Of a stretch of 64,000 bases of DNA, positions 11,702 through 58,740 are shown piece by piece (positions within the stretch are counted from its first letter, which is position 1; each line of letters opens with the position of its first letter). The notes below the pieces were generated by a model. That model worked only from the letters and a program-made list of their open reading frames with translations. It did not search any database and was not told the origin of the DNA. The position numbers and the translations under genes were made by a program. Origin of the DNA: Mobula hypostoma. Lineage: Eukaryota. Location of the stretch: assembly GCF_963921235.1 (NCBI RefSeq), contig NC_086108.1:75518001-75582000 (forward strand), written 5' to 3'.

Positions 11702-11842
11702 TCGACATTTTGGGTCGAGAACCTTCATCAGGAAACATCGACTGTTTATTCTTTTCTATAGATGCTGCCTGGCCTGATGAGTTCCTCCATGATTTTGTGT
11801 GCATTGCTTGGATTTCCAGCACCTGCAGATTTTCTCTTGTTT
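11702..11842 (+). mobile_element. Short PLE terminal-repeat insertion with a small inverted 5' piece
   Basis: PLE end motif GATGCTGCCTGG...CCAGCACCTGCAG; TSD GTAACTAGAATGG (11689-11701) / GTAACTACAATGG (11843-11855). Confidence 0.8.
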
Positions 11843-17907: not shown

Positions 17908-18030
17908 AAAAATGCAGATGCTGGAAATCTGAAACAAACACAGAAAATGCTGTATGCATTCAGAAGGTCAAAAAGCATCTGTGCAAAGAGAAACAGTTAA
18001 CATTTCAGATCCAGGATCCTTTGTCAAAAC
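17908..18030 (-). mobile_element. Old PLE terminal-repeat fragment
   Basis: TGCAGATGCTGGAAATCTG...AAAATGCTG...GCATCTGT, similar to other PLE ends in the window. Confidence 0.6.
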
Positions 18031-28865: not shown

Positions 28866-28910
28866 CACTGTTGCTCTGGATTTCCAGCATCTGCAGGATC
28901 TCTTGTGTTT
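28866..28910 (+). mobile_element. Very short PLE 3' tail fragment
   Basis: TGTTGCTCTGGATTTCCAGCATCTGCAGGATCTCTTGTGTTT matches PLE termini elsewhere in the window. Confidence 0.65.
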
Positions 28911-30604: not shown

Positions 30605-30840
30605 AGGACCAGGACTCATGACCCTCCGCGGGGCAACGGCAAGACAGCCTGACTTACCTCACGGAGGTGAGGACAAGACAGGACAAGACATGACCCCCAC
30701 CCCCCCCGCGGGGCAATGGCAAGATGGCCTGAGTTATCCCACAGAGGCGAGGACAAGACAAGACATGACTCCCCGCGGAGCAACGGCAAGACGGCCTGAC
30801 TTACCCCACAGAGGTGAGGACAAGATAAGACAAGACCAAC
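30605..30840. repeat. Three ~75-bp tandem repeats inside the LTR
   Basis: Unit CATGACCC..CCGCGGGGCAACGGCAAGACGGCCTGACTTACC..ACAGAGGTGAGGACAAGACA. Confidence 0.9.
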
Positions 30841-30984
30841 ACGAATGAACACCAGACAGTTACCTATCTAGCTCCGGCGATGGAACTAGACCGAAGTGCA
30901 GGCGGGGGCTGCAGACGAGGGCTAGAGGCGAGAGGGGCAGAGAAAGGATTCAGACAAGGGGGTAGGACAGGAATCACAGACCAC

Positions 30985-31190
30985 CAGGACCAGGACTTGA
31001 CATGGTACTTGAATGCCAGCAGGGCCAGGACTTGACATGGTACTTGAACGCCGCCAGGGCCAGGACGTGGACGTGGTACTTGAACGCTGCCGGAGCCAGG
31101 ATGTGGACGTGGTACTTGAATGCCGCCAGGGCCAGGACGTGGACGTGGTGCTTGGATGCCACTGGAGCCAGGATGTGGTGCTTGGAACCT
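30985..31190. repeat. Minisatellite of ~35-36 bp, about 6 copies, inside the LTR
   Basis: Unit GGCCAGGACGTGGACGTGGTACTTGAACGCCGCCA with variants. Confidence 0.9.
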
Positions 31191-32490
31191 CCGGGTAGTG
31201 GCGAGCTCTCGACTCGGCCCGGGAACAGTAGACAGCGGCTCTTGATTCTCTCCAGCGGGTTAATTGACGGACCCACCTTGTTGAGGAAACTTTGCAGGCT
31301 CGCTTCGGCGAGGTAACTGGACAGGGTTGCTCCAGTAAGGAAAGGCGAATTACCGGCACTCACTTCAGGCGGAACAAGGCTTTCTCCGGCCAGATGTCAT
31401 TGGCACGCCGTGACTTTACAGACTTTGCAGACGCTCCCACATTGAACAGCTGAAAGCCGGAGATTATAAACTACGGTTCAGCCGAGTGTTAATTGCTTCT
31501 AATCACCAAAGTCAAGGAACATGGGAAAACAGGGAATCAATGGTCCGGATCGTAGCGTAAACAAGGTAAATTTAAAGGGACCGCAATCGGGACCATGACA
31601 GTTTAGTGTTAGTAACTAAAGACAAATTTCTCACTTTCCATCAACCTCTCCTCAAGGATGTGAGAAGTTCTATCTCTTTAATCATATATCCTTTCTTTTC
31701 TTCTTTGGACTACAACATAAAAATAAACTTACCTTCCTATCCACAACACTCACCTCCAATCATTTATCTCCCTCCCATATCATTCATCATCTCTCTCAGC
31801 CTCCTCTACTTTTCACATCCTTTTTAGCTCTCTCCTCCACTCACAACCTCTTTCTTTACAGCCTACTCTCAGTTCCACTTCCTTTATTCAGCCATTCCTA
31901 TTTGGTTCCTTTCCATCTCCACCACCTCTATGTGCTCTCCCCTCAGGGGAAGGAGCAGGAGCAGGAATGGGAGGCAGTAGCTATGGTTATAGGTTGGACA
32001 GCTAGCTGAGGTAGGGTGAAGAAGAGAGAGGTAAGAAGGAGTGAAAAGGCAGTGTTTCAGCAGTGTATTTTATGTAAAGGGCGACGTACTTGGGAAGGGA
32101 GAGGAGAGAGCTGAGTGAAGGAGAAAATGAATGAAGTGAGAGATGCCGAGAAGGAGAATAAGTGAAGGAAGGGAGGAGAATGAAGCAGATACTGAGTGGG
32201 AGGTCATGGGAAGGAAGCGGGAGCTGAATAAAGGGGGAGCAGAGGGGATTCAGAGAAAGTGAGACTCGGGATGCATAGTGACTAAGGAAGATAGTTAAGG
32301 GATCTGAATGAAGGATGTGCAAGGGAGGGTAGCTAAGGAAGAAGATTTGTGCATTTATAACCATGTATATTCATATTTGCCTATGAACATGAACATGTGA
32401 ATGTGCTTGCGCATGTGTCCCTGCATGCATATCTACCCCCATATCTGTCTGCCCCCATATGTGTGTGTAGATGTTTGTACACATATTCCA

Positions 32491-34202
32491 ACTGCACTGT
32501 CATGATGCAAAAGCTGACTGTACTCTTCCAGTCCATGTGGAAAAAGGGACTGGTCCCGCAACAGCTGAAAGATGCCAGCATAGTCCACATCTACAAGAGG
32601 AAAGGCAACCGCCAGTCTTGTGACAACCACCGAGGCATCTCCCTCTTGCCCATTGCGGGGAAGATTCTGGCCCGTGTCCTGCTCAACCGCCTTCTCCAAC
32701 ATCTTGAGCAAGGTCTGCTCCCAGAAAGTCAGTGCGGCTTCCGTGCTGAATTTGGGACCGCGGACATGATTTTTGCTGCGCGCCAACTCCAGGAAAAATG
32801 CCAGGAGCAACACAGCGACCTCTTCGTGACCTTTGTCGATCTAACCAAGGCTTTCGATACGGTCAGCAGAGAAGGCTTGTGGAAGATCATGGAGAAGTTT
32901 GGCTGCCCCAGCAAGTTCATCACAATCATCCAGCAGTTCCATGACGGTATGATGGTGAAAGTTCTGGATGACGGCGACGAGTCGGAGGCCTTCCCAGTGA
33001 CAAATGGCGTCAAACAAGGCTGCGTTCTTGCCCCGACTCTGTTCAGTATGGTATTCTCTGCCATGCTGACAGATGCCTTCCGTAACTACGAAGAAGGAAT
33101 CCACGTCAGGTACAGGACTGACGGCAGGTTGTTCAACCTTAGGCGCCTGCAGGCAGTTACAAAGGTGCGAGAAACTGTCATCAGAGACTTCTTGTTTGCT
33201 GATGACTGCGCACTCAACGCCAGCACAGAGCAGGAGATGCAGCGTGAAATGGACTGCTTCTCACAACCCTGCGACAACTTCGGTCTCACTATCAGCACCA
33301 AAAAGACCGAAGTTATGTACCAGCCTGCCCCAGGAAAGCCATACCAGGAGTCGCACATCACGGTGAAGGGCCAGAACCTCCAGGCAGCCGACAACTTCAC
33401 CTACCTGGGCAGCATACTCTCTCGCGCAGTGAACATAGACACTGAGGTCAACAACAGGATTGCCAAAGCCAGCGCCGCCTTTGGGAGAATCCATGAGAAC
33501 GTCTGGGAGCGGAGAGGACTCAGCCTTACCACCAAGCTGAAGGTCTACTGTGCAGTGGTCCTTACCACCCTCCTTTACGCCAGCGAGACCTGGACTGTCT
33601 ACAGCAGACACGCCAAACAGCTCAACCATTTTCACCCGAGCTGTCTCCGCAGACTCCTCCACATCAGGTGGCAGGACAAGGTCCCCAACACGGAAATCCT
33701 GGAACGAGCTGGGCTCTGCAGCGTCTACACCCTCCTGCTGAAAGCCCAAGCCAGGTGGGCTGGACATGTGGTCAGAATGCCAGACAGCCGATTGCCTAAG
33801 CAGCTGCTGTACGGAGAACTGTGTCAGGGCAAGCGCTCAGTCAGGGGGCAGAAGAAACGTTACAAAGACTGCCTCAAAGCGTCCCTCAAAGGCCTGAGTG
33901 TTGACATCAACACGTGGGAGACGCTTGCCCTCGATCGTCCAGCTTGGCGCAGCAAGATCACCACAGGAGCTCGTGCAGCTGAAGTCAGGCGCATCACTGA
34001 GGCGCAACGAAAGCGTGCTGTGCGCAAGGCCCGAGCAGCATCCACTGCCACGACAGCACCCACCCACTTGTGTCCCACATGTGGGCGAGCCTTCAGGGCC
34101 CGGATTGGCCTCATCAGTCAGCTCCGGACCCACAGCCACCAATCTCCCATTTGACTTTGAAGCCATGGTCATCTTCGATTGTGAAAGACGAATAACAACA
34201 AC
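32491..34202 (+). mobile_element. 5'-truncated RTE-clade LINE
   Basis: Uninterrupted RT ORF, short 3' UTR, (ACA)n tail; candidate TSD ACACATATTCCA (32479-32490) / ACACATAGTCCA (34203-34214). Confidence 0.9.
32503..34154 (+). CDS. RTE LINE reverse transcriptase with C-terminal C2H2-like finger (5'-truncated, no endonuclease)
   Basis: NHRGISLL, QCGFR, FVDLTKAFD, GVKQGC, LFADD, YLGS, LLYASETW, CPTCGRAF..RIGLISQLRTH; the N-terminal 35 aa in the ORF track come from flanking DNA. Confidence 0.9.
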
Positions 34203-35501
34203 ACACATAGTCCACTACATACATATTTGCAGGTCCTCACATTTATACACGTACACTCCAGCTGTCTTGGACCTCCTTGTCATTGGACCAAGATCGTGCT
34301 CTGTTCAGTCCATGATGTAACTGCTGTACAACAAAGAATTCATCCACAGGCAACTTCATCTTCTTATAGCTGGAGTGGGAGCAATTCATCATCAATCCTG
34401 AAGGACTATCAAATGAACGAAAATTAAAACATCTATTAGAAACCTAGTTCACCTCTCGCCTTATTTTATTTGCAATTTTAGACCCTAGTCCTAAGAATAC
34501 ACTCACTTATTGACAGATCTAGGAGGCCTTTCCTTACCATTGAAAATGCCATGCAAGAATCTCCTTCTGACTTTTCCTCCTGTTAAATATGAGGTGAAGA
34601 AGTGGTTCCTCCAAATCTGGTCAAAAGCAGAATTATGCCTTGAGGTACAGAATAGATGCTGTATATTTGGCAATAATGGAAACAGTCACGTTAAAGTGCT
34701 TAAAACAGGAAGATTACAAGAAGAAAACATGTTGTGTTTTATATCAAACTGAATTTCAATGTTTTTTCAGTATAGAGTTAAGATTAAAATAATAAGGCTA
34801 CTTTTGACATTCGAGGTGCTTTATTACAAGAATTTTAGAGCTGGTTTCAGATTTACAGTGGGAAAAACATGAAAGAAGGTCTGCCCTGGGAGGCAGGATG
34901 TTCCTGAAACTGCCAATAATTTAAAGGTTCAAGGAGAGTGCAAGTCAACTCAGGTTGCTTTCCCAAACATTTAGTCAGGAGATGTCAAGTAACAAGGAAG
35001 GAGCTGTAAGTTGCAAAAACAGACTGAAAATACAAATTTTTAAAATTAGATCGTAGGAGGAAGTTCCATTTGCAATCCAGTTTTGAAATTTGAGGGATAT
35101 TTCTAAACCAGCCGCAAACTGATTTTGAACTGATTTAGCTCTTTGAAACATAAGTTTCTAACTCTCACATATTTAGCCTTTCTGTTCTTTAGCATATCTG
35201 GCAAAGCCCAGAAATCAACCCAACTACAATATTACAGTAAGTTTATGGATGCCACAAAAGTTGGTGGTGTTATGGACAGCAATGGAGGTTGCCCAAAACT
35301 ACTGCAGGAGATAGACCAGCTGGAGAGTTGGACAGATTACTGTCAGATTAAATTTAATCTCAAAAGTAAAAGGGAGTGCATTTTTGAAAGTCAAATAGTG
35401 ACAGACACAAATTGCAAATAGTACGGCATTAGGGATTTTGGTAAAGACTTTGGTAAACCTGTGCCCCTCAGCTATGTGGAGTACTTTGCCACGTATTCAA
35501 C

Positions 35502-36779
35502 ATGAGCCTGAGGCTCCGGAGGGTTCCTGTACTGTGGAAGACGTCCTGCCTCGTCCCTGTGCCGAAGACGCCGCGCCCCAGCGGCCTCAATGTCTACAGA
35601 CCGGTGGCATTGACTTCCCACATCGTGAAGACCCTGGAGAGACTTGTTCTGGAGCTGCTCCGGCCTATGGTCAGGCCACACAGAGATCCCCTCCAGTTTG
35701 CCTACCAGCGCCGACTAGGAGTTGAGGATGCCATCATCTACCTGCTGAACCGTGTCTACGCCCACCTGGACAAGCCAGCAAGCACTGTGCGGGTCATGTT
35801 TTTTGAATTCTCCAGTGCGTTCAACACCATCTGCCCTGCTCTGCTGGGGGAGAAGCTGACAGCGATGCAGGTGGATGCTTCCCTAGTATCATGGATTCTT
35901 AATTACCTGACCGGCAGACCACAGTACGTGTGCTTGCAACACTGTGTGTCCGACAGAGTGATCAGCAGCACTGGGGCTCCACAGGGGACTGTCTTGTCTC
36001 CCTTTCTCTTCACCATTTACACCTCGGACTTCAACTACCGCACAGAGTCTTGTCATCTTCAGAAGTTTTCGGATGACTCTGCCATAGTTGGATGCATCAG
36101 TAAGGGAGATGAGGTTGAGTACAGGGCTACGGAAGGAAACTTTGTCACATGGTGTGAGCAGAATTATCTGCAGCTTAATGTGAAAAAGACTAAGCAGCTG
36201 GTGGTAGACCTGAGGAGAGCTAAGGTACTGGTGACCCCTGTTTCCATCCAGGGGGTCAGTGTGGACATGGTGGAGGATTACAAATACCTGGGGATACGAA
36301 TTGACAATAAACTGGACTGGTCAAAGAACACCGAGGCTGTCTACAAGAAGGGTCAGAGCCATCTCTATTTCTTGAGGAGATTGAGGTCACTTAACATCTG
36401 CCGAACGATGCTGAGGATGTTCTACGAGTCTGTGGTGGCCAGTGCTATCATGTTTGCTGTTGTGTGCTGGGGCAGCAGGCTGACGGTAGCAGACCCCAAC
36501 AGAATCAACAAACTCATTCGTAAGGCCAGTGATGTTGTGGGGATGGAACTGGACTCTCTCACGGTGGTGTCTGAAAAGAGGATGCTGTCCAAGTTGCATG
36601 CCATCTTGGTCAATGTCTCCCATCCACTACATAATGTACTGGTTGGGCACAGGAGTACATTCAGCCAGAGACTCATCCCACCAAGATGCAGCACAGAGCG
36701 TCATAGGAAGTCATTCCTGCCTGTGGCCATCAAACTTTACAACTCCTCCCTTGGAGGGTCAGACACCCTGAGCCAATAG
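35502..36779 (+). CDS. Rex1/Babar reverse transcriptase (5'-truncated)
   Basis: WKTSCLVPVPK, YRPVALTS, DPLQFAY, FSSAFNTI, GAPQGTVLSP, KFSDDS, YKYLG, LYFLRRLRS. Confidence 0.9.
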   Translation: MSLRLRRVPVLWKTSCLVPVPKTPRPSGLNVYRPVALTSHIVKTLERLVLELLRPMVRPHRDPLQFAYQRRLGVEDAIIYLLNRVYAHLDKPASTVRVMFFEFSSAFNTICPALLGEKLTAMQVDASLVSWILNYLTGRPQYVCLQHCVSDRVISSTGAPQGTVLSPFLFTIYTSDFNYRTESCHLQKFSDDSAIVGCISKGDEVEYRATEGNFVTWCEQNYLQLNVKKTKQLVVDLRRAKVLVTPVSIQGVSVDMVEDYKYLGIRIDNKLDWSKNTEAVYKKGQSHLYFLRRLRSLNICRTMLRMFYESVVASAIMFAVVCWGSRLTVADPNRINKLIRKASDVVGMELDSLTVVSEKRMLSKLHAILVNVSHPLHNVLVGHRSTFSQRLIPPRCSTERHRKSFLPVAIKLYNSSLGGSDTLSQ

Positions 36780-37036: not shown

Positions 37037-39433
37037 CCAAACAAAGGGACCTTGGGGGTCCAAGTACATTTCTCTCTGAAAGTGACACACTCAGTCAAAA
37101 AGGGTGGTGAAAGAAGCATATACTTCATAGGTTGAGGCATAAAATATTAACGTTAGACACTGGAGCATGGAGTCCAGTTCTGCTTACCACACTATTGGAA
37201 GGGTGTGGTTGCACTGCAGATTGCAGAGGAAGTTTGCCATGCTGTTGTCTGGATTGTTCAGTTTAGTTATGTAGAGAGTTTGGATAGGCTGGGATTGTTT
37301 TCCATGAAGTGAAGGAGGCAGAGGAATTTGATCAGTTACAAGAAGCATATACCGCATAGGGCAGAAAGTCAGAATCTTATCCTATGGTAGGTGTATCAAA
37401 AACAAATTGATTATATTTGCGGCTCTTCAGCACTCTAAAGCAGGTAATTAGTTCTTTGATGAATTCTCCACTAGTCCTGTCCGGCAGTAGGAGTGGGTAG
37501 ACAGTGACAAGTGCAACTCCATCCCTTTCTATTTCAAACTGCAACAAACTTCTTATTTAGATCTGTACATGAGAATTGACCTCATATCTGAAACATATGT
37601 GGAATTCAGCTGCTTCCACAGGGAGCTTGTAGTTCAAGCCTCATGTAGTTAAAACCCAAGGCCCCATTCAGGACTACCTCAGCCCCAAGAAACAAACTAT
37701 TTTTTTACCCTTGAAACCTTCTCTTTGATCCTTCTCTTTAAAATTGCTTTGGGACTTATCTCAAGCCAGATCTTTAATATAAAATTGTTTTGAACACCCA
37801 AAAGACATGATCCTTCAAATATTTTTTTTCTTTTTGCCCGACTGATTTCAAAACAATTAAGCCAAAACGATACTGAATTATCAAGACTGATATATTGACA
37901 ATGTCATAATGTTAGTATATCTTGTAGAAAGTATTTCCAATTTATGGAGAATGAAAGTGAAATGCTTCTTTCCTCTTACCAACATTTAACATTTATTTAG
38001 TATGTCTTTCTGCACAGGGACATCATATCCAAGCAAGAAAGAGCAGCAGTGGGCCAAACTGTCCATTGTACATAAAAATCACATCAATGTAATGGTGGCC
38101 ACTTTACATCAAATCTATATTTTCATCCCAATCTCAAACGTTCTTGATCACTGACTTTCTTGATTCAAAAACATTTCAGCCTTGGGTACACTCAGTGACT
38201 GACTATCAACACCCTTGAGATGAAAATTCATAAGATTTCCAACAGTCTGAGAAAGAAATTTCTCATTTCAGACTAAAATGGAAAACCTCTTTCCTTTGGA
38301 TTAGGGCATCCACTTGGAAGGAGCATCCTTACAACATCTACCTTGACATTTGCACATTGATGAAAAGTAGATATTGTAAGAACATTCAGAACCTTCAGAA
38401 ACTTCAGAATCCTGTGCACACACGCAAGTGAATTAAATCTATAAACAGCACTACATTTTAAGTAGTAAGCTCTACAACTTAAGTAATTCAGGCAATATAG
38501 AGTTTCTTTATTATAGAGAAATTCACACATCTACCCATGCACAAACATAAATATAAGCTTAGAAGTCTGAATGTTTTATGAGTTCTTGACAGAAAGCAAT
38601 TGGCCCAAGTTCTAAATATGAAGCTGCCTGTACCATCACCACTTCACAGAGGAGAACAGTTGAACATAAGAGTATAAAATGTACATTATTGGGCCCCTTC
38701 ACTTGGCCCCTGTCAATTTGTTAGGAAGAAAACAGTAAGCAGAGCAGTTATCCTCCTGCAGACATCTATCAGCCATCCTACTCCTTTATAAAGGGCAGCC
38801 AGTGGTTTCATGGACAATCCAGACTCTTCAACAGTCCTGTCAAACACAGATAACAGATCCATTTGTTACTTGGAACCATTTCCAAATTTATTTGTAATTA
38901 CAAAAGTGGTAACATCTGTTTCTCAGCAAATAGCAACATTTGTCTCATGGATCAACTTGAAATGGAATACTTATTACTTCTAACTTCCCACTGTCTCCAG
39001 TAAAACTGAATGAGAGTTCAATAAAAATTAAGACAAGAGACTATCACTCTCCAAGGTAGGTCAATACAATGTGTCCTTTTGGCAAACTAGAGGGAGAAGC
39101 CTCTGTGAATGCAAACCATGAGGCAGAAGTGTGCATATTTAAATGTGACTGGTTTTGCATGTGCACTGTAACCTATTAAACATTTACACTTTATTGCTTG
39201 CATTTAATATTTGGACAGTGGGAGGAGCGAGTCATTGGTGGCCCTTAGCAAACAATATGCTTTAACTGACAATCACAAGAACAGGTGTACAATTCCGTAT
39301 TTAGCAGTGTTCCTATGTATTTAAAGTTCTGTGTAAATAATTAGAATCTTACCTCTTCTCTAAACTCAAGTCAGTCACCAGTCAAAGTTGCTGGTGAACG
39401 CAGCAGGCCAAGCAGCATCTGTAGGAAGAGGTG

Positions 39434-39471
39434 CAGTCGACGTTTCAGGCTGAGACCCTTCGTCAGGACTA
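39434..39471 (-). ncRNA. Minimal type I hammerhead ribozyme motif
   Basis: Minus strand UAGUC CUGACGA AGGGUCUCAGCCU GAAA CG UC GACUG; core and stems I and II intact; activity is inferred. Confidence 0.75.
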
Positions 39472-39765
39472 ACTGAAGGAAGAGTGAGTAAGGGATTTGA
39501 AAGTTGGAGGGGGAGGGGGAGATCCAAAATGATAGGAGGAGGGGGAGGGATAGAGTCAAGAGCTGGACAGGTGATAGGCAAAAGGGGATACGAGAGGATC
39601 ATGGGACAGGAGGTCCGGGAAGAAAGACGGGGTGGGGGGGACCCAGAGGATGGGCAAGAGGTATATTCAGAGGGTCAGAGGGACAGAGGGAGAAAAAGGA
39701 GAGTGAGAGAAAGAATGTGTGCATAAAAATGAGTAACAGATGGGGTACGAGGGGGAGGTGGGGCC

Positions 39766-41010
39766 TTAGCGGAAGTTAGAGAAGTCGATGTTCATGCCAT
39801 CAGGTCGGAGGCTACCCAGACGGAATATAAGGTGTTGTTCCTCCAACCTGAGTGTGGCTTCATCTTTACAATAGAGGAGGCCGTGGATAGACATGTCAGA
39901 ATGGGAATGGGATGTGGAATTAAAATGTGTGGCCACTGGGAGATCCTGATTTCTCTGGTGGACAGAGTGTAGATGTTCAGCAAAGCGGTCTTCCAGTCTG
40001 TGTCGGGTCTCGCCAATATATAAAAGGCCACATCGGGAGCACCGGACGCAGTATATCACCCCAGTCGACTCACAGGTGAAGTGTTGCCTCACCTGGAAGG
40101 ACTGTTTGGGGCCCTGAATGGTGGTAAGGGAGGAAGTGTAAGGGCATGTGTAGCACTTGTTCCGCTTACGCGGATAAGTGCCAGGAGGGAGATCAGTGGG
40201 GAGGGATGGGGGGGACGAATGGACAAGGGAGTTGTGTAGGGAGTGATCCCTGCGGAATGCAGAGAGATACGGGGAGGGAAAGATGTGCTTAGTGGTGGGA
40301 TCCTGTTGGAGGTGGCGGAAGTTACGGAGAATAATATGTTGGACCCGGACGCTGGTGGGGTGGTAGGTGAGGACCAGGGGAACCCTATTCCTAGTGGGGT
40401 GGCGGGAGGATGGAGTGAGAGCAGATGTACGTGAAATGGGGGAGATGCGTTTAAGAGCAGAGTTGATAGTGGAGGAAGGGAAGCCCCTTTCTTTAAAAAA
40501 GGAAGACATCTCCCTCGTCCTAGAATGAAAAACCTCATCCTGAGAGCAGATGCAGTGGAGACGGAGGAATTGCAAGAAGGGGATGGCGTTTTTGCAAGAG
40601 ACAGGGTGAGAAGAGGAATAGTCCAGATAACTGTGAGAGTCAGTAGGCTTATAGTAGACATCAGTGGATAAGCTGTCTCCAGAGACAGAGACAGAAAGAT
40701 CTAGAAAGGGGAGGGAGGTGTCGGAAATGGACCAGATAAACTTGAGGGCAGGGTGAAAGTTGGAGGCAAAGTTAATAAAGTCAACGAGTTCTGCATGCGT
40801 GCAGGAAGCATCGCCAATGCAGTCGTCGATGTAGCGAAGGAAAAGTGGGGGACAGATACCAGAATAGGCACGGAACATAGATTGTTCCACAAACCCAACA
40901 AAAAGGCAGGCATAGCTAGGACCCATACGGGTGCCCATAGCTACACCTTTAGTTTGGAGGAAGTGGGAGGAGCCAAAGGAGAAATTATTAAGAGTAAGGA
41001 CTAATTCCGC
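39766..41010 (-). CDS. PLE RT C-terminal half plus Cys linker plus GIY-YIG endonuclease (5'-truncated, open frame)
   Basis: QTKGVAMGTRMGPSYA, FLRYIDD, LPFLDL, VYYKPT, KCYTCP, VIYCVRCSRCGLLYIGET, PDGMN. Confidence 0.9.
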   Translation of the reverse strand, partial: AELVLTLNNFSFGSSHFLQTKGVAMGTRMGPSYACLFVGFVEQSMFRAYSGICPPLFLRYIDDCIGDASCTHAELVDFINFASNFHPALKFIWSISDTSLPFLDLSVSVSGDSLSTDVYYKPTDSHSYLDYSSSHPVSCKNAIPFLQFLRLHCICSQDEVFHSRTREMSSFFKERGFPSSTINSALKRISPISRTSALTPSSRHPTRNRVPLVLTYHPTSVRVQHIILRNFRHLQQDPTTKHIFPSPYLSAFRRDHSLHNSLVHSSPPSLPTDLPPGTYPRKRNKCYTCPYTSSLTTIQGPKQSFQVRQHFTCESTGVIYCVRCSRCGLLYIGETRHRLEDRFAEHLHSVHQRNQDLPVATHFNSTSHSHSDMSIHGLLYCKDEATLRLEEQHLIFRLGSLRPDGMNIDFSNFR

Positions 41011-41052
41011 TAATTAAGAGTAAGGACTAATTCCATTGTCCATTGACAACTC

Positions 41053-43962
41053 GCCTGAAGGCTTTATGTGTCAATGCAAGGAGCATTCATAATAAGGTGG
41101 ATGAACTGAAAGTGCAGATTGTTATTAATGATTATGATATAGTTGGGATCACAGAGACATGGCTCCAGGGTGACCAGGGATGGGAGCTCAACGTTCAGGG
41201 ATATTCAATATTCAGGAGGGATAGACATGAAGGAAGGGGAGGTGGGGTGGCGTTGCTGGTTAAAGAAGAGATTAACGCAATAGAAAGGAAGGACATAAGC
41301 CGGGAAGATGTGGAATCGATATGGGTAGAGCTGCGTAACACTAAGGGGCAGAAGACGCTGGTGGGAGTTGTGTACAGGCCACCTAACAGTAGTAGTGAGG
41401 TCGGAGATGGTATTAAACAGGAAATTAGAAATGTGTGCAATAAAGGAACAGCAGTTATAATGGGTGACTTCAATCTACATGTAGACTGGGTGAACCAAAT
41501 TGGTAATGGTGCTGAGGAAGAGGATTTCTTGGAATGTATGCGGGATGGTTTTTTGAACCAACATGTCGAGGAACCAACTAGAAAGCAGGCTATTCTGGAC
41601 TGGGTTTTGAGCAATGAGGAAGGGTTAATTAGCGATCTTGTCGTGAGAGGCCCCTTGGGTAAGAGTGACCATAATATGGTGGAATTCTTCATTAATATGG
41701 AGAGTGAGATAGTTAATTCAGAAACAAAGGTTCTGAACTTAAAGAGGGGTAACTTTGAAGGTATGAGACGTGAATTAACTAAGATAGACTGGCAAATGAC
41801 ACTTAAAGGATTGACGGTGGATATGCAATGGCAAGCATTTAAAGGTTGCATGGATGAACTACAACAATTGTTCATCCCAGTTTGGCAAAAGAATAAATCA
41901 AGGAAGGTAGTGCACCCGTGGCTGACAAGAGAAATTAGGGATAGTATCAATTCCAAAGAAGTAGCATACAAATTAGCCAGAGAAAGTGGCTCACCTGAGG
42001 ACTGGGAGAAATTCAGAGTTCAGCAGAGGAGGACAAAGGGCTTAATTAGGAAGGGGAAAAAAGATTATGAGAGAAAACTGGCAGAGAACATAAAAACGGA
42101 CTGTAAAAGCTTTTATAGATATGTAAAAAGGAAAAGACTGGTAAAGACAAATGTAGGTCCCCTGCAGACAGAAACAGGTGAATTGATTATGGGGAGCAAG
42201 GACATGGCAGACCAATTGAATAATTACTTTGGTTCTGTCTTCACTAAGGAGGACATAAATAATCTTCCAGAAATAGTAAGGGACAGAGGGTCCAGTGAGA
42301 TGGAGGAACTGAGTGAAATACATGTTAGTAGCGAAGTGGTGTTAGGTAAATTGAAGGGATTGAAGGCAGATAAATCCCCAGGGCCAGATGGTCTGCATCC
42401 CAGAGTGCTTAAGGAAGTAGCCCAAGAAATAGTGGATGCATTAGTGATAATTTTTCAAAACTCGTTAGATTCTGGACTAGTTCCTGAGGATTGGAGGGTG
42501 GCTAATGTAACCCCACTTTTTAAAAAAGGAGGGAGAGAGAAACCGGGGAATTATAGGCCGGTTAGCCTAACGTCGGTGGTGGGGAAACTGCTGGAGTCAG
42601 TTATCAAAGATGTGATAACAGCACATTTGGAAAGCGGTGAAATCATCGGACAAAGTCAGCATGGATTTGTGAAAGGAAAATCATGTCTGACGAATCTCAT
42701 AGAATTTTTTGAGGATGTAACTAGTAGAGTGGATAGGGGAGAACCAGTGGATGTGGTATATTTGGATTTTCAAAAGGCTTTTGACAAGGTCCCACACAGG
42801 AGATTAGTGTGCAAACTTAAAGCACACGGTATTGGGGGTAAGGTATTGGTGTGGGTGGAGAATTGGTTAGCAGACAGGAAGCAAAGAGTGGGAATAACCG
42901 GGACCTTTTCAGAATGGCAGGCAGTGACTAGTAGGGTACTGCAAGGCTCAGTGCTGGGACCCCAGTTGTTTACAATATATATTAATGACTTGGATGAGGG
43001 AATTAAATGCAGCATCTCCAAGTTTGCGGATGACACGAAGCTGGGTGGCAGTGTTAGCAGTGAGGAGGATGCTAAGAGGATGCAGGGTGACTTGGATAGG
43101 TTGGGTGAGTGGGCAAACTCATGGCAGATGCAATTTAATGTGGATAAATGTGAAGTTATCCACTTTGGTGGCAAAAATAGGAAAACAGATTATTATCTGA
43201 ATGGTGGCCGATTAGGAAAAGGGGAGGTGCAATGAGACCTGTGTGTCATTATACACCAGTCATTGAAAGTGGGCATGCAGGTACAGCAGCCGGTGAAAAA
43301 GGCGAATGGTATGCTGGCATTTATAGCGAGAGGATTCGAGTACAGGAGCAGGGAGGTACTACTGCAGTTGTACAAGGCCTTGGTGAGACCACACCTGGAG
43401 TATTGTGTGCAGTTTTGGTCCCCTAATCTGAGGAAAGACATCTTTGCCATAGAGGGAGTACAAAGAAGGTTCACCAGATTGATTCCTGGGATGGCAGGTC
43501 TTTCATATGAAGAAAGACTGGATGAACTGGGCTTGTACTCGTTGGAATTTAGAAGATTGAGGGGGGATCTGATTGAAACGTATAAGATCCTAAAGGGATT
43601 GGACAGGCTAGATGCGGGAAGATTGTTCCCGATGTTGGGGAGGTTCAGAACAAGGGGGCACAGTTTGAGGATAGAGGGGAAGCCTTTTAGGACCGAGATT
43701 AGGAAAAACTTCTTCACACAGAGAGTGGTGAATCTGTGGAATTCTCTGCCACAGCAAACTGTTGAGGCCAGTTCATTGGCTATGTTTAAGAGGGAGTTAG
43801 ATATGGCCCTTGTGGCTACAGGGGTCAGGGGGTATGGAGGGAAGGCTGGGGCGGGGTTCTGAGTTGGATGATCAGCCATGATCATAATAAATGGCGGTGC
43901 AGGCTCGAAGGGCCGAATGGCCTACTCCTGCACCTATTTTCTATGTTTCTATGTTTCTATGT
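41053..43962 (+). mobile_element. Young CR1 LINE, almost complete ORF2 (APE endonuclease plus RT) with one in-frame TGA at 43233
   Basis: NARSI, GITETW, VYRPP, GDFN, SDH (endonuclease); KSPGPDG, NYRPVSL, YLDFQKAFD, FADDTK (RT); (TTTCTATG)n tail; candidate TSD AACTC at 41048-41052 and 43963-43967. Confidence 0.95.
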
Positions 43963-44429
43963 AACTCCCTTGTCCATTCGTCCCCCCATCCCTCCCCACT
44001 GATCTCCCTCCTGGCACTTATCCGTGTAAGCGGAACAAGTGTTACACATGCCCTTACACTTCCTCCCTTACCACCATTCAGGGCCCCAAACAGTCCTTCC
44101 AGGTGGGGCAACACTTCACCTGTGAGTCGACTGGGGTGATATACTGCGTCCGGTGCTCCCGATGTGGCCTTTTATATATTGGCGAGACCCGACACAGACT
44201 GGGAGACCCCTTTGTTGAACATCTACACTCTGTCCGCCAGAGAAAGCAGGATCTCCCAGTGGCCACACATTTTAATTCCACATCCCATTCCCATTCTGAT
44301 ATGTCTATCCACGGCCTCCTCTACTGTAAAGATGAAGCCACACTCAGGTTGGAGGAACAACACCTTATATTCCGTCTGGGTAGCCTCCAACCTGATGGCA
44401 TGAACATCGACTTCTCTAACTTCCGCTAA
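43963..44429 (+). pseudogene. PLE GIY-YIG domain fragment (inverted duplicate arm)
   Basis: HFTCESTGVIYCVRCSRCGLLYIGETRHRL...QPDGMNIDFSNFR. Confidence 0.9.
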
Positions 44430-44723
44430 GGCCCCACCTCCCCCTCGTACCCCATCTGTTACTCATTTTTATGCACACATTCTTTCTCTCACTCTCCTTT
44501 TTCTCCCTCTGTCCCTCTGAATATACCTCTTGCCCATCCTCTGGGTCCCACCCCCCCTTGTCTTTCTTCCCGGACCTCCTGTCCCATGATCCTCTCGTAT
44601 CCCCTTTTGCCTATCACCTGTCCAGCTCTTGGCTCTATCCTTTCCCCTCCTGTCTTCTCCTATCAATTTGGATCTCCCCCTCCCCCTCCAACTTTCAAAT
44701 CCCTTACTCACTCTTCCTTCAGT

Positions 44724-44761
44724 TAGTCCTGACGAAGGGTCTCGGCCTGAAACGTCGACTG
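44724..44761 (+). ncRNA. Minimal type I hammerhead ribozyme motif
   Basis: UAGUC CUGACGA AGGGUCUCGGCCU GAAA CG UC GACUG; predicted cleavage after 44756. Confidence 0.75.
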
Positions 44762-44947
44762 CACCTTTTCCTACAGATGCTGCTTGGCCTGCTGCATTCA
44801 CCAGCAACTTTGATGTGTGTTGCTTGAATTTCCAGCATCTGCAGAATTCCCGTTGTTTTCAGTCACCAGTGTCTAGTTTGCCCAAAAGCTGCCAGCAAGG
44901 TTTAAAGTACAAGTGTTAAAATGATTAATAATGCTTATATCCAAAGA

Positions 44948-45092
44948 TATCTTACATCTTATGCTCTGAAGAAGGGTCCCAGCTCAAAATGTTGGCTGTT
45001 TGTTCATTTCCACAGATGTTGCCTGACCTGCTGAGTTCCTCCCGCAGTTTATGTATGTGGCTTTGGTTTTCCAGCATCTGCAGAATCTCTCG
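44948..45092 (+). mobile_element. Short PLE terminal-repeat insertion starting at a decayed hammerhead
   Basis: CTGAAGAAGGGTCCCAGCTCAAAATGTT...CCAGCATCTGCAG; direct repeat TGCTTATATCCAAAGA at 44932-44947 and 45093-45108. Confidence 0.8.
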
Positions 45093-45181
45093 TGCTTATA
45101 TCCAAAGACAGTTTTAATGAAAGATGTTATGATATCAGCTCATTACCATCTTGATTGCCATCTTAACACTAATTTGAGCCA

Positions 45182-45790
45182 CACACATCAAAGTTGCTGG
45201 TGAACGCAGCAGGCCAGGCAGCATCTCTAGGAAGAGGTACAGTCAACATTTTGGGCTGAGACCCTTCGTCAGGACTAACTGAAGGAAGAGTTAGTAAGAG
45301 ATTTGAAAGTGGGAGGGGGAGGGGGAGATCCGAAATGATAGGAGAAGACAGGAGGGGGAGGGATGGAGCCGAGAGCTGGACAGGTGATTGGCAAAAGGGG
45401 ATACAAGAGGATCATGGGACAGGAGGCCTAGGGAGAAGGAAAAAGGGGGAGGGGGGGAAAACCCAGAGGATGGGCAAGGGGTATAGTCAGAGGGACAGAG
45501 AGAGAGAGAGAGAGGGAGAGAAAGAATGTGTGTATATAAATAAATAACAGATGGAGTACGAGGGGAAGGTGGGGCATTAGCAGAAGTTAGAGAAGTCAAT
45601 GTTCATGCCATCAGGTTGGAGGCTACCCAGACGGAATATAAGCTCTTCCTTCAGTTAGTCCTGACGAAGGGTCTCAGCCCGAAACGTTGACTGTACCTCT
45701 TCCTAGAGATGCTGCCTGGCCTGCTGCGTTCACCAGCAACTTTAATGTGTGTTGCTTGAACTTCCAGCATCTGCAGAATTCCTCGTGTTT
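45182..45790. mobile_element. Small inverted PLE (minus arm 45182-45641, plus arm 45642-45790)
   Basis: Terminal inverted repeats of about 110 bp; perfect 14-bp TSD ACTAATTTGAGCCA at 45168-45181 and 45791-45804. Confidence 0.9.
45656..45693 (+). ncRNA. Minimal type I hammerhead ribozyme motif
   Basis: UAGUC CUGACGA AGGGUCUCAGCCC GAAA CG UU GACUG. Confidence 0.7.
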
Positions 45791-46049
45791 ACTAATTTGA
45801 GCCAAGTGCTTGGCGGTAGGTCTGTATATGCTGAGATCAGACAGAAATCCCACCTGTTTAGCTCCCTTAAAGTAATTTAGTTTTATTCATGTTAAACTTA
45901 GGTAATAGCATAAAAACCTCAACAAAACTTGCAATCAAATTGCTTATCATATCTCATGATTTTAAATAGAGACTATTGCAGTATAGGAAAGTTTTTGCAA
46001 CTTTTATTTTAAACCTTTATAATTTCAAGATCACTGGTTTATTAAATAG

Positions 46050-46670
46050 ATCAAAAATTGCATTAGGACCACAGAAGAGGAATAGTTCATGGAATGTTCA
46101 GAATCCTGATAGCAGAGGGAAGAAAGCTGATCCTAAAACATTGAGTGTGCATCTTTAGGCTCTTGTACTTCCTCCCTGATGAGAATAATGAGAAGGAGGT
46201 ATGTCCTGGATGATTATGGTGCTTAATGATGGATGCTGCCTTTTGAAGATGTCCTCGGTGGTAGGGGCAGAGGGGAGGGACTTTGCCCATGATAGAGCTG
46301 TTTGAGTCTACAACCCACTGTGGCCTGTAACAATCATTGGCATTGGAACCTCCATGCCGTGGTGCAGCCAGTCAGAATCCTCTCCATAGTACACCAGTAG
46401 AAACTTACTAGAATCTTTCATTACATATCAAATCTCCTCAAACCCTTGATCAAGTAGAGCTGCTGGTGTGCCTTCTTCATGGTTGTAACAATATGTTGGG
46501 CCCAGGACAGATCTTCTGAGACGTTGAAGCCCAGGAACTTGAAGCTGATCACCCTTTCCACTCCAGCGCCCTCAGTGAGGACTGGTGTGTGCTCTTCAGA
46601 GCTCCTCTTCCTGAACTTCACAATCTATTTCTTGGTCTTGCAGTTGTTTAATCAACCAGTCAATTTCCTA
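46050..46670 (-). mobile_element. Degenerate Rex1/Babar 3' fragment
   Basis: VERVISFKFLG.N.SEDLSW, KKAHQQLY, HPGHTSFSLFSSGRKYKSL. Confidence 0.8.
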
Positions 46671-46671
46671 A

Positions 46672-48230
46672 CCAACACACACAAAATGCTAGAGGAACTG
46701 AACAGGTCAGGCACTATCTATGGAAATGAATAAGCAGTTGACATTTCAGGCCGAAGCCCTTCTTCAGGATTGAAATGGAAGGAGAAGACACCAGAATAAA
46801 AAGGTGGGGGAGAGGAAGGACACTAGCTAGAAGGTGATAGGTGACGCCAAGTGGGTGGAAAGGTCAAGGGCTGGAGAAGAAGGAATCTGATAGGAGAGGA
46901 GAGGGCACTATAGGAGAAAGGGAAGGAGGAGGGAACCCAGGGGGAAGTGATAGGCAGCTGAGGAGAGGTAAAAGGCCAGAGTGGGAAATAGAAGAAGACG
47001 GGAAAGGGAGGGAATTTTTTTTTATTGGAAGAAAAAGTCAATATTCATGCCATCAGGTTGGAGTCTACCCAGATGGAATATAAGGTTTTGTTCCTCAACC
47101 CTGAATGTGGCCTCAGCTTGGCACAAGAGGAGGCCATGGACAACATGTCAGAACAGGAATGGGAATCAGAAAGTGTTTGACTGCTGGGAAATCCCACTTT
47201 TGGCTTTCGGTAGGTGCAGCGGAGGTGCTCAATGATTCCCCCAATTTCCGAAGGGTCTCACCAATGTGGAGGAGGCCACATCGGGAGCGCTGGACACAAC
47301 AAGATGACCCCGGCAGATTCACAAGTGAAGTGTTCCCTCACCTGGAAGGGCTGCTTGGGACCATGAATAGAGGTTAGAGAGTAGGTGACTGGGCATGTGT
47401 AGTATTTCTGCTGCTTGCAGGATTAAGTGTCAGGAGGCAGAGTAGTTGGAAAAGACGAATGGACAGTGAAATCACAGTGGGAGTGATCCCTGCAGAAAGT
47501 GGCGGGGGGGGCGCGATGGGAGAGGTAAAGATATATTTGGTGGGAGGATCCCTTTGGAGATGGCAGAAGTTGCAAAGGATGATGTGTTGTATGCGGAGGC
47601 TTAACGGGTGGTAGGTAAGGAAAAAGGGAATTCTCACTGTTTCGGTGGCGAGAAGATGGGGGAAGGATGTTTGGGAAATGGAGGAGATGCAGCTAAGGGC
47701 AGTATCAATAGTGGTGGAAGGGAAATCCTGTTCTTTGAAGAAGAAGGACACCTCGGATGTCCTGGAAAGGAAGCCCACGTCCTGGGAACAGATACAGCAG
47801 AGGCAAAGAAACTGAGAAAAGGGAATAACATTTTTACAGGAGACAAGGTGGGAAGAACTATAGTCAAAGTAACCATGGGAATCGGTAGTTTTATAAAAGA
47901 TGTGGGTTAACAGTTTGTCTCCAGAGATGGAGAGAGAGAGATTGAGAAAAGGGAGGGAGATGTCAGAAGTAGACCAAGTGAACTTAAGGACAGAGTGGAA
48001 GATAGAGGCAAAGTTGATGAAATTGACGTGCTAAGCATGGGTGCATGAAGCAGTACCAATGCAGTCATCCATGTAATGGAGGAAGAGTTGAGAAGTATTA
48101 CCGGCAAAGGCTTCAAACATAGACTGTTCTATTTAGCCAACAAAGAGGCAGGCATAACTAGGGCTCATGTGGATGCCCATGACTACTCTTCAAGTCTGGA
48201 GAATGTGGGAGGAGCAGCAGAAAAAATTGT
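46672..48230 (-). mobile_element. Older degenerate PLE (RT and GIY-YIG remnants)
   Basis: CGLLHIGETLRKLG and LTYHPLSLRIQHIIL, colinear with 39400-40990; hammerhead remnant at 46734-46771. Confidence 0.85.
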
Positions 48231-50091
48231 TTCCTACAATTCAATGAGCCGACACCCTCTATTAGGAATTTTATAAATGCTTTATTGAATCCTATACAAA
48301 TAACCATGGTGGTTAATAACAATTCTCGTGTAATAATATTATATAAACCATATTAACCATATATGAGTCAGTGAATTTTATGACTCCATGATATTGAATC
48401 AGCTTCGTAACTGATCAACTACCTTTCATAAATCTATCATGACTCATTCTGATTAGGTGGAAGCATTCAGTCACTCTATCCTTAATTACAGGGTCTAATA
48501 ATTTCCCCATGACAGATGTTAACTATTAGGACTAGAAGTCAGTGATTGACTCCTCAGTTTTCTTAAATGGCATCATGTATATAATTTCTCAATCGAAGGG
48601 AACTGGTTTCTTAACTGAGAAAACTTCAATAGTTGAAAGGAATGGCCTTTGCTTCATTCAAATCCTTGAATGGAAGGCTTCAAAGCCTGAGGATTTGTCA
48701 CACTTTAATATCATTTTTTTTCATTAATTTAAGTTTATCTACAGTAATTTCAGTGGTTTTCACCTCCTGATCCAACATTAAATAAACCTTGGGTTGTATT
48801 GACATTCAGTCCTTTATATAATCTCTAGTGCAACATAACCATTCAATATATCCACAAGGTCATTATTTTCATTTACAATACTACCATTGTTGGCTTTCAA
48901 TTGGCCTTGATATATCTTTCAATTATATAATTGTGGAAAAATGTGTTTATTGAAATGTCATTTACAAGTTTTCTTTCATATTCTCTGTAACTCGTTGTTA
49001 TACATTTTGTAATCTTGTGTTCTTTTTGTTTCTAAGTTGGCAAGATCTAGTTTTACATCTTTATATGCATTTCTTTTCAGTTTTATGTTGTCCTTTATTC
49101 TATAGCCATCACTGGTTCTGATTATTTTTCACCAACTGAGTTCTTGCTCCAAGGGGATATAACTGGTTCTGTATCAAATTAAGGTCTCTTTTTTTTAAAC
49201 ACCTTCCATTGTTCAGTTTTTGTCAATAAACAGATTTACCCTGTTTATTCTGGATGTTGAAGTCAGCTTTTGCTGGAACCTTCAGGAGATTCATTTCAAA
49301 TGGCATAAAGTTGATAACACTCAAGAGGAAAAATGGCATTTTGAGTAAATTAAGACAGAATGGAAAAGTTTGCAAACATTCCTCCCAAATTTCCCAAATT
49401 AAGTGCAGGGAGAATTGTGACAGAAGAAAGTTGAAACACCCAATTACATCATTGTACTAATAGTCACACTAATTTATCTCTATTAGGCAGAAATTATATC
49501 ATTCTTGATTCCTTGACACCTGTAAAACAAACTGCATAATCCAGAATAACTGCTGATCAGAAAGATGACTGATGACAATCGCGTTCAGAATAAGGTTTGG
49601 AACTTTTGGGGAGATGATATTTACCCCAAAACATTGGAACTTCTAACTGTAGAACCATTCAAAAGCAAAGGCAAAATGGAAAGAATCATGTGAATTGATG
49701 GCCAAATGCAATAGTTGCAGCAAATAAATAACCCAACTGAATAAGTAAATAATTTAAAAATGAAGGAAATATTAAAACAAAGTCACATTTATTTTCTCTG
49801 TTTCAAGAAACCAGAAAAGAAGCAGAAAATTAGAGTAGTAATTACTACCAAGCATGTAGTTTGAGAATTGTAACTGTCATTCTAAAGGGTTTAGTCAAAG
49901 GATAAAATAGGAAGGTATTTGCCTTGAATGTTTCTTACTTAATTTTTTCATCTTCTTTACTAATGCAGAATTATAACATTTTAATTTACCAAGTGTTTGC
50001 TTATTTATTTTGAACTGTTATGAATCATTGGCTAGTCCTCTTCTAATTTTATTAATGTCTTAATGCCTTGAACTGATTGACTCATTCACAA

Positions 50092-53243: not shown

Positions 53244-53338
53244 CCTGACGAAGGGTTCCGGCCCGAAACGTCGACAGATTTTTTCCACGGATGCTGCCCG
53301 ACCTGCTGAGCTCCTCCAGCGTGTTGTGAGTATTGCTT
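53244..53338 (+). mobile_element. Short PLE fragment beginning at a hammerhead core
   Basis: CTGACGAAGGGTTCCGGCCCGAAACGTCGAC...GATGCTGCCCGACCTGCTGAG. Confidence 0.8.
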
Positions 53339-53576: not shown

Positions 53577-55274
53577 CTTCCAGAAATAGTAGGGGACAGA
53601 GGGTCCAGTGAGATGGAGGAACTGAGCGAAATACATGTTAGTAGGGAAGTGGTGTTAGGTAAATTGAAGGGATTAAAGGCAAATAAATTCCCAGGGCCAG
53701 ATGGTCTGCATCCCAGAGTGCTTAAGGAAGTAGCCCAAGTAATAGTAGATGCATTAGTGATAATTTTTCAAAACTCGTTAGATTCTGGACTAGTTCCTGA
53801 GGATTGGAGGGTGGCTAATGTAACCCCACTTTTTAAAAAAGGAGGGAGAGAGAAACCGGGGAATTATAGACCAGTTAGCCTAACGTCGGTGGTGGGGAAA
53901 CTGCTGGAGTCAGTTATCAAAGATGTGATAACAGCACATTTGGAAAGCGGTGAAATCATCGGACAAAGTCAGCATGGATTTGTGAAAGGAAAATCATGTC
54001 TGACGAATCTCATAGAATTTTTTGAGGATGTAACTAGTAGAGTGGATAGGGGAGAACCAGTGGATGTGGTATATTTGGATTTTCAAAAGGCTTTTGACAA
54101 GGTCCCACACAGGAGATTAGCGTGCAAACTTAAAGCACACGGTATTGGGGGTAAGGTATTGATGTGGATAGAGAATTGGTTAGCAGACAGGAAGCAAAGA
54201 GTGGGAATAAACGGGACCTTTTCAGAATGGCAGGCAGTGACTAGTGGGGTACTGCAAGGCTCAGTGCTGGGACCCCAGTTGTTTACAATATATATTAATG
54301 ACTTGGATGAGGGAATTAAACGCAGCATCTCCAAGTTTGCGGATGACACGAAGCTGGGTGGCAGTGTTAGTTGTGAGGAGGATGCTAAGAGGATGCAGGG
54401 TGACTTGGATAGGTTGGGTGAGTGGGCAAATTCATGGCAGATGCAATTTAATGTGGATAAATGTGAAGTTATCCACTTTGGTGGCAAAAATAGGAAAACA
54501 GATTATTATCTGAATGGTGGCCAATTAGGAAAAGGGGAGGTGCAATGAGACCTGGGTGTCATTATACACCAGTCATTAAAAGTGGGCATGCAGGTACAGC
54601 AGGCGGTGAAAAAGGCGAATGGTATGCTGGCATTTATAGCGAGAGGATTCGAGTACAGAAGCAGGGAGGTACTCCTGCAGTTGTACAAGGCCTTGGTGAG
54701 ACCACACCTGGAGTATTGTGTGCAGTTTTGGTCCCCTAATCTGAGGAAGGACATCCTTGCCATAGAGGGAGTACAAAGAAGGTTCACCGGATTGATTCCT
54801 GGGATGGCAGGACTTTCATATGAAGAAAGACTGGATGAACTGGGCTTGTACTCGTTGGAATTTAGAAGATTGCGGGGGGGATCTGATTGAAACGTATAAA
54901 ATCCTAAAGGGATTGGACAGGCTAGATGCAGGAAGATTGTTCCCGATGTTGGGGAGGTTCAGAACGAGGGGTCACAGTTTGAGGATAAAGGGGAAGCCTT
55001 TTAGGACCGAGATTAGGAAAAACTTCTTCACACAGAGAGTGGTGAATCTGTGGAATTCTCTGCCACAGGAATCAGTTGAGGCCAGTTCATTGGCTATATT
55101 TAAGAGGGAGTTAGATATGGCCCTTGTGGCTGCGGGGATCAGGGGGTATGGAGGGAAGGCTGGTGCAGGGTTCTGAGTTGGATAATCAGCCACGATCATA
55201 ATAAATGGCGGTGCAGGCTCGAAGGGCCGAATGGCCTACTCCTGCACCTATTTTCTATGTTTCTATGTTTCTAT
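53577..55274 (+). mobile_element. Young 5'-truncated CR1 nested in an older minus-strand CR1 3' end (about 53440-55445)
   Basis: Near-identical to 42265-43960; TGA at 54546 and a frameshift near 54875; CTATAAC repeated at 53551-53557 and 55271-55277. Confidence 0.95.
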
Positions 55275-58501: not shown

Positions 58502-58740
58502 TTAACACACACAAAATGCAGGAAGAACTTGGCAGGGCAAGCAGCATCATTGAAAAAAGTAAATAGTCGTCGTTTCAGGCCAAGACCCTTCATCAAGGCT
58601 AACCAGTCCTGATGAAAGGTCTCGCCCAGAAACTTTGACTGTTTATTCATTTCCATAGATGGTGCCTGACCTGCTGAGTTCCTCCAACATTTTGTGTGCG
58701 TTGCTTTGGATTCCCAACAGCTACAGATTTTCTCGTGCTT
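58502..58740. mobile_element. Palindromic mini-PLE (two inverted terminal repeats only) inside a Rex1-like 3' UTR remnant
   Basis: Arms meet at about 58600 between two opposed hammerhead remnants; 12-bp TSD GTGCAGAATAAA at 58490-58501 and 58741-58752. Confidence 0.85.

Follow-up and report, generated by a model that had tools for sequence, protein, structure and literature searches.

Several insertions in a 64,000-nucleotide stretch of Mobula hypostoma DNA (contig NC_086108.1; hereafter the window) consist of a hammerhead ribozyme and about 100 nt of downstream sequence, and begin just ahead of the ribozyme. How do such non-coding copies acquire this edge: through the ribozyme itself, as members of a separate retrozyme-like family, or in the course of reverse transcription by the element that carries the hammerhead? 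The insertion at 44948–45092 (locus G; 145 bp, forward strand) poses the question directly. It lies between two exactly matching 16-bp target-site duplications (44932–44947 and 45093–45108). Its leading 18 bases (44948–44965) differ from what the element normally has upstream of the core. They are followed by a minimal type I hammerhead core (44966–44998), which has decayed (GAAAC to AAAAT) and has its predicted cut after 44993, and by about 95 nt of downstream sequence (44999–45092) that includes a tail of about 35 nt and ends at the outer reverse transcriptase (RT) start site (+126). Throughout, offsets are counted from the first C of CUGANGA, and the predicted cut falls between +27 and +28. 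On our best reading, such stubs come from the RT/GIY-YIG protein of the element itself and are nothing out of the ordinary.

The element and its hammerhead

Judged by sequence, the short inserts are the 3′ ends of a Neptune-type Penelope-like element (PLE), reduced to a minimal hammerhead and about 100 nt. Repeats abound in the 64-kb window of animal DNA: it contains LINE frames of the CR1, RTE and other types and one GIY-YIG frame (39766–41013, reverse strand). This frame matches PF01541 (GIY-YIG) with an E value of 0.0002 and 22.0 bits, narrowly missing the cut-off of 22.6. It has 120 relatives of 728 or more residues, the best of them 53% identical, most carrying PF00078 and several PF01541, and tblastn searches with the relatives' proteins gave matches on arms at loci B, F, I and L. 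Between RT and endonuclease lies a cysteine linker of the form CX2-5CxxC (CKRNKCYTC, within 43965–44429), a motif found in 107 of the 120 relatives. Craig et al. (2021, PMC8557442) describe such a linker for the clades Neptune and Nematis, and our Neptune/Nematis assignment rests on it, the relatives carrying no clade names. The copies also have the 30–40-bp tail and the inverted, 5′-truncated partner arms of an EN+ PLE, with inverted pairs at loci A, B, F, H, K and L; no full-length copy with direct terminal repeats was found among the element copies of the window. With Neptune/Nematis elements as described by Craig et al. (PMC8557442) they share RT followed by a C-terminal GIY-YIG domain, the cysteine linker, heavy 5′ truncation, the inverted 5′-truncated partner, the one-ended 30–40-bp tail and the terminal-repeat hammerhead, whereas the available text of that source speaks of truncation in general and of no clustering of 5′ ends where the hammerhead begins. 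The element type, the minimal hammerhead, the tail and the inverted arms have all been described before, and the elements themselves are ordinary.

The hammerhead was called from its motif together with helix pairing. A strict pattern of the minimal type I form (CUGANGA, helix II, GAAA, palindromic pair, NUH, helix I) is present in 7 of 16 cores, and the other nine fail it mostly through CpG decay; an Rfam search gave no match at the gathering score. Helices I and II are paired in 85% of 130 cells, as against 7–44% when slid, and three pairs are changed on both sides, with covariation not above that of shuffles (90/500). Folding energies of the stubs were no better than those of shuffled sequences (z −1.4 to +1.1). 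The cores share with the PLE minimal hammerheads of Cervera and De la Pena (2014, PMC4209133) the lack of loop III, the palindromic 15.2–16.2 pair and an unpaired base ahead of helix II. Most PLE hammerhead motifs are solo and "probably related to truncated PLEs", and some are paired on opposite strands 100–700 bp apart (PMC4209133); unlike the present analysis, the accessible text of that study gives no mapped boundaries of solo copies. The stretch from hammerhead to tail had no protein match among the 120 relatives (best E 0.27), and the idea that the stubs represent an ORF start was rejected on this ground; in Poseidon of Anolis, by contrast, the ORF begins at the hammerhead (PMC11167929). 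In the predicted folds of F and G, the inner RT start site sits between the strands of a stem of about 9 bp downstream of the hammerhead (44777–44841).

Other repeats share the window. A 597-codon open RT frame (32361–34154), RTE-like by look, belongs to a LINE family other than the PLE; GC-rich tandem arrays with periods of 67–80 and 36 (30622–31178) lie upstream of it. A 440-codon open RT frame of another LINE family, with an ALKBH8_N match, occupies 35457–36779. A young CR1-type family is present in three copies (42264–43960, 53577–55274 and 10598–11137) that are 96–97% identical and end in an 8-bp tandem tail.

Loci, boundaries and relationships of the copies

A profile built from eight hammerhead-plus-tail pieces identified 18 arms at 12 loci (A to L) in the window at E < 0.001, whereas shuffled and reversed controls gave none under E 0.7; two profile matches at locus C were counted as one arm. 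Neither the long arms nor the relatives' proteins, used as queries on the window, turned up element sequence anywhere else; together the loci make up 12% of it.

Four loci other than G hold single short pieces: a stub of about 170 bp split by a CR1-type LINE (locus C, 15266–16898, reverse strand; LINE at about 15336–16800), a 124-bp stub (D, 17914–18037, reverse), a tail-less stub with an intact core that lacks the last ~35 nt (J, 53244–53338, forward) and a 41-bp tail-only piece (E, 28869–28911, forward). Locus I is a long tail-less arm (46670–48231, reverse). Six loci are two-armed. At locus A, an inverted arm consisting of the hammerhead core only (11702–11732, reverse) abuts a forward arm that runs from GAAAC to the tail end (11733–11842). 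At locus B, a long arm with ORF end, UTR, hammerhead and tail (12821–13600, reverse) is joined by an inverted part (13600–13831, forward). Locus F combines a long, tail-less inverted arm with a 415-codon RT-end/GIY-YIG frame (39383–41013, reverse) and a forward arm with an intact hammerhead at 44729 (43963–44858). Locus H pairs a tail-less inverted arm (45182–45642, reverse) with a short forward arm (45643–45790) that is element sequence right to the junction. Locus K pairs a tail-less inverted arm (58502–58602, reverse) with a forward arm (58603–58740), and locus L a long, tail-less inverted arm (61367–62148, reverse) with a forward arm (62148–62567).

The original prediction had taken five short inserts for a hammerhead with about 100 nt. 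All five are real, and the description holds for 44948–45092, but locus C measures 1,633 bp, about 1,465 bp of it CR1-type LINE, 11702–11842 and 58502–58740 are two-armed inverted structures rather than single units, and the list lacked the duplication-flanked 17914–18037 as well as 28869–28911. It was right that four of the five carry target-site duplications of 12–16 bp (G 16, K 12 and C 13 bp, exact; A 13 bp with one mismatch), and the breakpoints it placed at 45642/45643 (−18) and 11732 lie where it had put them.

Several features stand out at individual loci. Three PLE insertions (the end of F, G and H) lie no more than 330 bp apart (43961–45804). Two of the PLE insertions contain a CR1-type LINE: at locus F it fills the arm junction (41014–43962), and in locus C (15336–16800) it lies in a TG-rich stretch at the inner RT start site. 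Locus C also has, between helix II and GAAA, a local duplication of 7 nt that breaks the core (16860–16893). In the inverted part of locus B (13600–13831), the main arm is extended upstream by about 85 nt of ORF, after which the sequence jumps to −46 of a tail-less arm, and we read this as a twin-priming-like event and a PLE-type inversion in a single insertion. The two arms of locus K (58502–58740) are only 75% identical though its 12-bp duplication is exact, while the F and H arms are 96% alike; two different RNAs may have been copied at one site in K.

Target-site duplications are exact at C (13 bp), D (12 bp, T-rich), F (12 bp; 39371–39382/44859–44870), G (16 bp), H (14 bp; 45168–45181/45791–45804) and K (12 bp; 58490–58501/58741–58752), and that of A has one mismatch in 13 bp (11689–11701/11843–11855). 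Loci B and L have degenerate duplications only, and none was found in the flanks of E, I and J. Twelve or more shared letters arise by chance in 0.06% of cases (5,000 random draws of two 30-nt windows 120–260 apart). The 3′ ends fall at two positions, +126 to +131 (six arms; D at +113) and +83 to +97 (seven arms), and the tail is absent from inverted arms. The same tail signature arises in the anole element from RT initiation at two internal sites (Frangieh et al. 2024, PMC11167929). The duplications of A, C, D, G and K carry one mismatch in 66 bp, whereas the copies differ by 6–24% (non-CpG) from the majority of older copies; many source subfamilies, decayed templates or selection for clean duplications could account for this, and the search by exact matching itself favours clean ones.

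A separate family of short arms finds no support in the comparison. Over 86 shared columns, identity is 70% between short arms, 70% between long arms and 71% between short and long. On a tree of 16 rows and 86 columns, which is weak and omits E and the inverted arm of A as too short, the short/long label changes six times compared with 5.3 in shuffles, so that the two classes are interspersed. The sole firm branch joins the short forward arm of H with the long F and H arms, and this forward arm is 96% identical to its own long inverted partner. The original prediction had offered a retrozyme-like non-autonomous family and proposed a clade test; run on the window's arms, this test rejected a single clade of the eight short arms (AU p 0.0002). 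Non-LTR retrozymes are head-to-tail tandems of 150–450 bp that occur in families (Cervera and De la Pena 2020, PMC7229834; Li et al. 2026, bioRxiv 10.64898/2026.07.22.740005). The stubs resemble them in being non-coding, in the type I hammerhead, in kinship to PLE terminal repeats and in long duplications, but are single or inverted, form no family and are bounded by PLE RT start sites. Among 27 tandem-repeat rows in the window (longest period 80), none lies on the hammerhead unit. Because retrozymes are tandem units in families, these stubs do not belong to them, and a separate retrozyme family is not supported. Li et al. also count solo "monomers" (preprint, 10.64898/2026.07.22.740005). It had further been argued that the stubs, in spanning the predicted cleavage site, derive from uncleaved or re-ligated RNA. 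They do span it, but so do all long copies in the window, and re-ligation was rejected in view of the lack of any permuted or tandem unit.

Position of the 5′ edges

Eight of the 18 arms, at 7 of the 12 loci, have their 5′ boundary at −20 to 0: the inverted arm of A and J at −1, C at −5, both arms of K at −6 (approximately so for the inverted one), D at −10, and G and the forward arm of H at −18. This agrees with the earlier claim of breakpoints within 20 nt upstream of CUGANGA. The remaining edges are scattered, at +21 (A forward), about +89 (E), about −46 (B inverted), about −291 (L forward), about −370 (H inverted), about −653 (B), about −686 (L inverted), −766 (F forward), −1464 (I) and −1547 (F inverted). 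None of the 18 arms has its edge at +25 to +31, around the predicted cut, at +31 to +70 or at −61 to −290. Ribozyme cleavage was accordingly rejected as the origin of the edge. Edge density at −20 to 0 is 38 per 100 nt, compared with at most 5 per 100 nt in all other bins.

We assessed this pile-up with a scan statistic that allows for the bin having been picked afterwards (20,000 simulations for the fitted exponential). With all arms, P was 0/20,000 for the fitted exponential, 0.0004 for a log-uniform and 0.002 for a two-exponential mix, and the plot of 5′ breakpoints against the cleavage site that had been proposed thus shows, for the window's copies, a peak at the ribozyme edge (P ≤ 0.002 for these smooth models). 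An exponential of mean 100 gave P = 0.05 for all arms and 0.12 for one arm per locus, but the seven long arms cannot come from it. With one arm per locus (the tail-bearing arm only, I and J dropped), five of ten edges fall in the bin, with P 0.004–0.006 under models that also make long copies.

Detection does not account for the empty bin downstream. Planted 3′ fragments of at least 60 nt were recovered in 34–40 of 40 cases at up to 10% added divergence and in 22–39 of 40 at 15%, in a test that is partly dependent, as three of the four donors were in the profile. Short 3′ fragments are therefore recoverable, and the empty +31 to +70 bin is no detection gap. Nor does loss of homology in the UTR explain the edges, since duplications delimit A, C, D, G and K, and an inversion junction delimits H. 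Stubs C, D and G open, ahead of the core, with 3–18 bases unlike the element, which places the edge of element-derived sequence mostly at −1 to −6, in the 5′ strand of helix I. The leading 18 bases of G bear a loose likeness to the inverted right flank; a local match this good was reached in 5.6% of control windows, and a flank copy was rejected as their source, as was an upstream exon, the extra bases of G and D matching no long arm well.

The edge at +21 in the forward arm of A is best read as what we take to be a twin-priming collision, its partner starting 3 nt past the predicted cut and stopping at −1. As in L1 twin priming, the inverted pieces of A and B pick up where the forward arm breaks off upstream, the two overlapping by one base at A; unlike it, most inverted arms begin anew from the inner 3′ start site, as is typical of PLEs.

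Outside the window, we considered contigs of a run (X1) lying on the forward arm of F (257,514 contigs). Their depth rises 2.5-fold at the hammerhead bin and equally at the ORF end (44351–44410), so depth follows conservation between subfamilies. The top loose-end site among those listed is 44725 (−4), with 469 contigs and an agreement of 0.39, and lies exactly where the subfamily departs from older ones; both the depth step and this site are confounded by subfamily divergence, in a run only guessed to be RNA. Less confounded are the joints with letters between their sides, whose kind is not given: among those listed, 10 are distinct, and 4 of their 20 ends fall at −15, −4, −3 and 0 (P 0.001–0.013). 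Two runs of raw reads (X21 and X22) yielded no matching read. Pattern scans for further copies found none in viral contigs or prokaryote genomes, 10 pattern loci in metagenome contigs were dropped as chance matches (best profile E 0.012), and protein-based locus scans of prokaryotic and viral collections found nothing. A literature search whose coverage largely left out subscription papers found no report of a 5′-end peak at a PLE hammerhead, and the peak is probably an unreported, modest mechanistic detail.

How the short copies may arise

We give about an even chance to an internal RT start in the 5′ terminal repeat, with run-off at the RNA 5′ end just before the ribozyme. The element RNA would begin a few bases ahead of the hammerhead in the 5′ terminal repeat, and would hold the RT start region twice, once per terminal repeat. 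Priming in the 3′ repeat would yield long, smoothly truncated arms, whereas priming in the 5′ repeat would run off after about 130–150 nt and leave a stub with a fixed 5′ edge, comparable to an integrated strong-stop cDNA and at times with a few added bases. At inverted loci, the second target strand may prime a second cDNA of either the short or the long class. Two priming repeats would give about equal numbers of stubs and long arms, as is seen. This mechanism draws on one 64-kb window and weak contig support, and the in vitro data with which we compare it come from another clade (Poseidon).

In the anole Poseidon element, RT initiates internally and product length tracks the RNA 5′ end from −126, RT reads through the hammerhead, ribozyme mutants leave product size unchanged and it is chiefly uncleaved RNA that serves as substrate in vitro (Frangieh et al. 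2024, PMC11167929). The copies studied here share with it two internal, tail-defining RT starts about 90–130 nt past the hammerhead and an uncleaved template, and differ in their clustered 5′ ends, which the available text on the anole element does not contain (PMC11167929). Given read-through and neutral ribozyme mutants in vitro, the RNA 5′ end, which the original prediction had not weighed, is at least as likely a cause of the edge as the stall or template switch that it had proposed. PLE transcription starts in the terminal repeat (Schostak 2008; Craig 2021, PMC8557442). The Drosophila Penelope transcript starts 46 nt upstream of an intron of 75 nt whose end falls at helix I (Schostak 2008; Cervera 2014, PMC4209133), a position far upstream of the spot proposed here. 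The edges here spread from −18 to −1, and the forward arm of H keeps element sequence to −18, which counts against run-off. An initiator-like word (YYANWYY) has its A at −4 in seven of seven long arms, in keeping with the proposed start; such words are common in the UTR (5–8 per UTR), and helix I, with which this one overlaps, would account for its conservation just as well.

The main rival, which we regard as possible but on the doubtful side, holds that RT primes in the 3′ repeat and often stops or is released on leaving a structured, protein-bound domain from hammerhead to tail, the stall lying at helix I of a double hammerhead, whose 5′ strand would remain paired to a second copy, or at entry into a UTR of 78–80% pyrimidine (pyrimidine share 0.77–0.80). 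Most element-derived edges at −1 to −6 fall in the 5′ strand of helix I, and the inversion junctions of H and K are at the same spot. Two cores cofold at −32.7 kcal/mol, compared with −12.2 for one, the predicted dimer not being the catalytic fold, and the anole hammerhead cleaves only with protein present (PMC11167929). Yet the anole RT passes through the hammerhead in vitro (PMC11167929), helix I of a monomer would already be unwound when RT reaches its 5′ strand, and shuffled sequences fold as well as the stubs do. The nascent cDNA folds back only weakly (−2.8 to −4.6 kcal/mol), and such fold-back was rejected as a cause. The window alone cannot separate run-off from stall. That the edge is a small-sample accident or bias over smooth 5′ truncation is very unlikely. 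There are only 12 loci, the bin was named after the data were seen, arms of one locus are not independent and the exponential of mean 100 gives P 0.05–0.12; against this, the scan statistic corrects for the chosen bin, boundaries are set by duplications or a junction and not by homology loss, and bins on both sides are empty although short fragments are detectable.

Some stubs may have been re-mobilised in trans, a stub or decayed copy being transcribed from an internal promoter or by host read-through, SINE-like, repeatedly and independently; the near-perfect duplications of A, C, D, G and K beside diverged copies, the 3–18 non-element bases that open three stubs and the widespread PLE-repeat-related solo retrozyme "monomers" of vertebrates (Li 2026, 10.64898/2026.07.22.740005) all fit. 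We nevertheless consider this unlikely, as the exact-match search favours clean duplications, many source subfamilies fit the distances equally (run X1 contigs occur in all identity bands), the stubs share neither 5′ sequence nor a clade and are no more alike (70%) than short and long arms are (71%), and a fixed edge would need a second cause. Least probable of all is that the edge is a 3′ splice site and the stubs were copied from spliced RNA with a second exon starting at helix I. A pyrimidine tract with YAG at −4 is present in five of seven long arms, and the Drosophila Penelope intron ends at helix I (PMC4209133), but the stubs have no common upstream exon, the forward arms of H and K keep the acceptor side, a pattern search found no donor-like word in seven of seven UTRs, the additional bases of G and D find no good match in any long arm, and among the 15 joints listed for the run X1 contigs no GT..AG skip leads to the hammerhead edge.

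Returning to run-off at the RNA 5′ end, a wider extension seems rather unlikely to us: strong-stop-like cDNA from the 5′ terminal repeat might be routinely integrated and the stubs re-copied in trans, as the birth step of SINE-like monomers and vertebrate non-LTR retrozymes. If stubs begin at the transcription start, they would carry the RT-binding region and any internal promoter. A fixed 5′ edge before the hammerhead, with none at the cut, indicates that the template owes its end to something other than the cut, and it offers a cheap genomic readout for separating RNA start from RT stall. The finding touches the definition of PLE RNA 5′ ends, the role of the hammerhead and the origin of vertebrate solo hammerheads and retrozymes; if the strong-stop reading is true, stub edges would locate the 5′ ends of PLE RNAs in any genome, with no need of RNA data.
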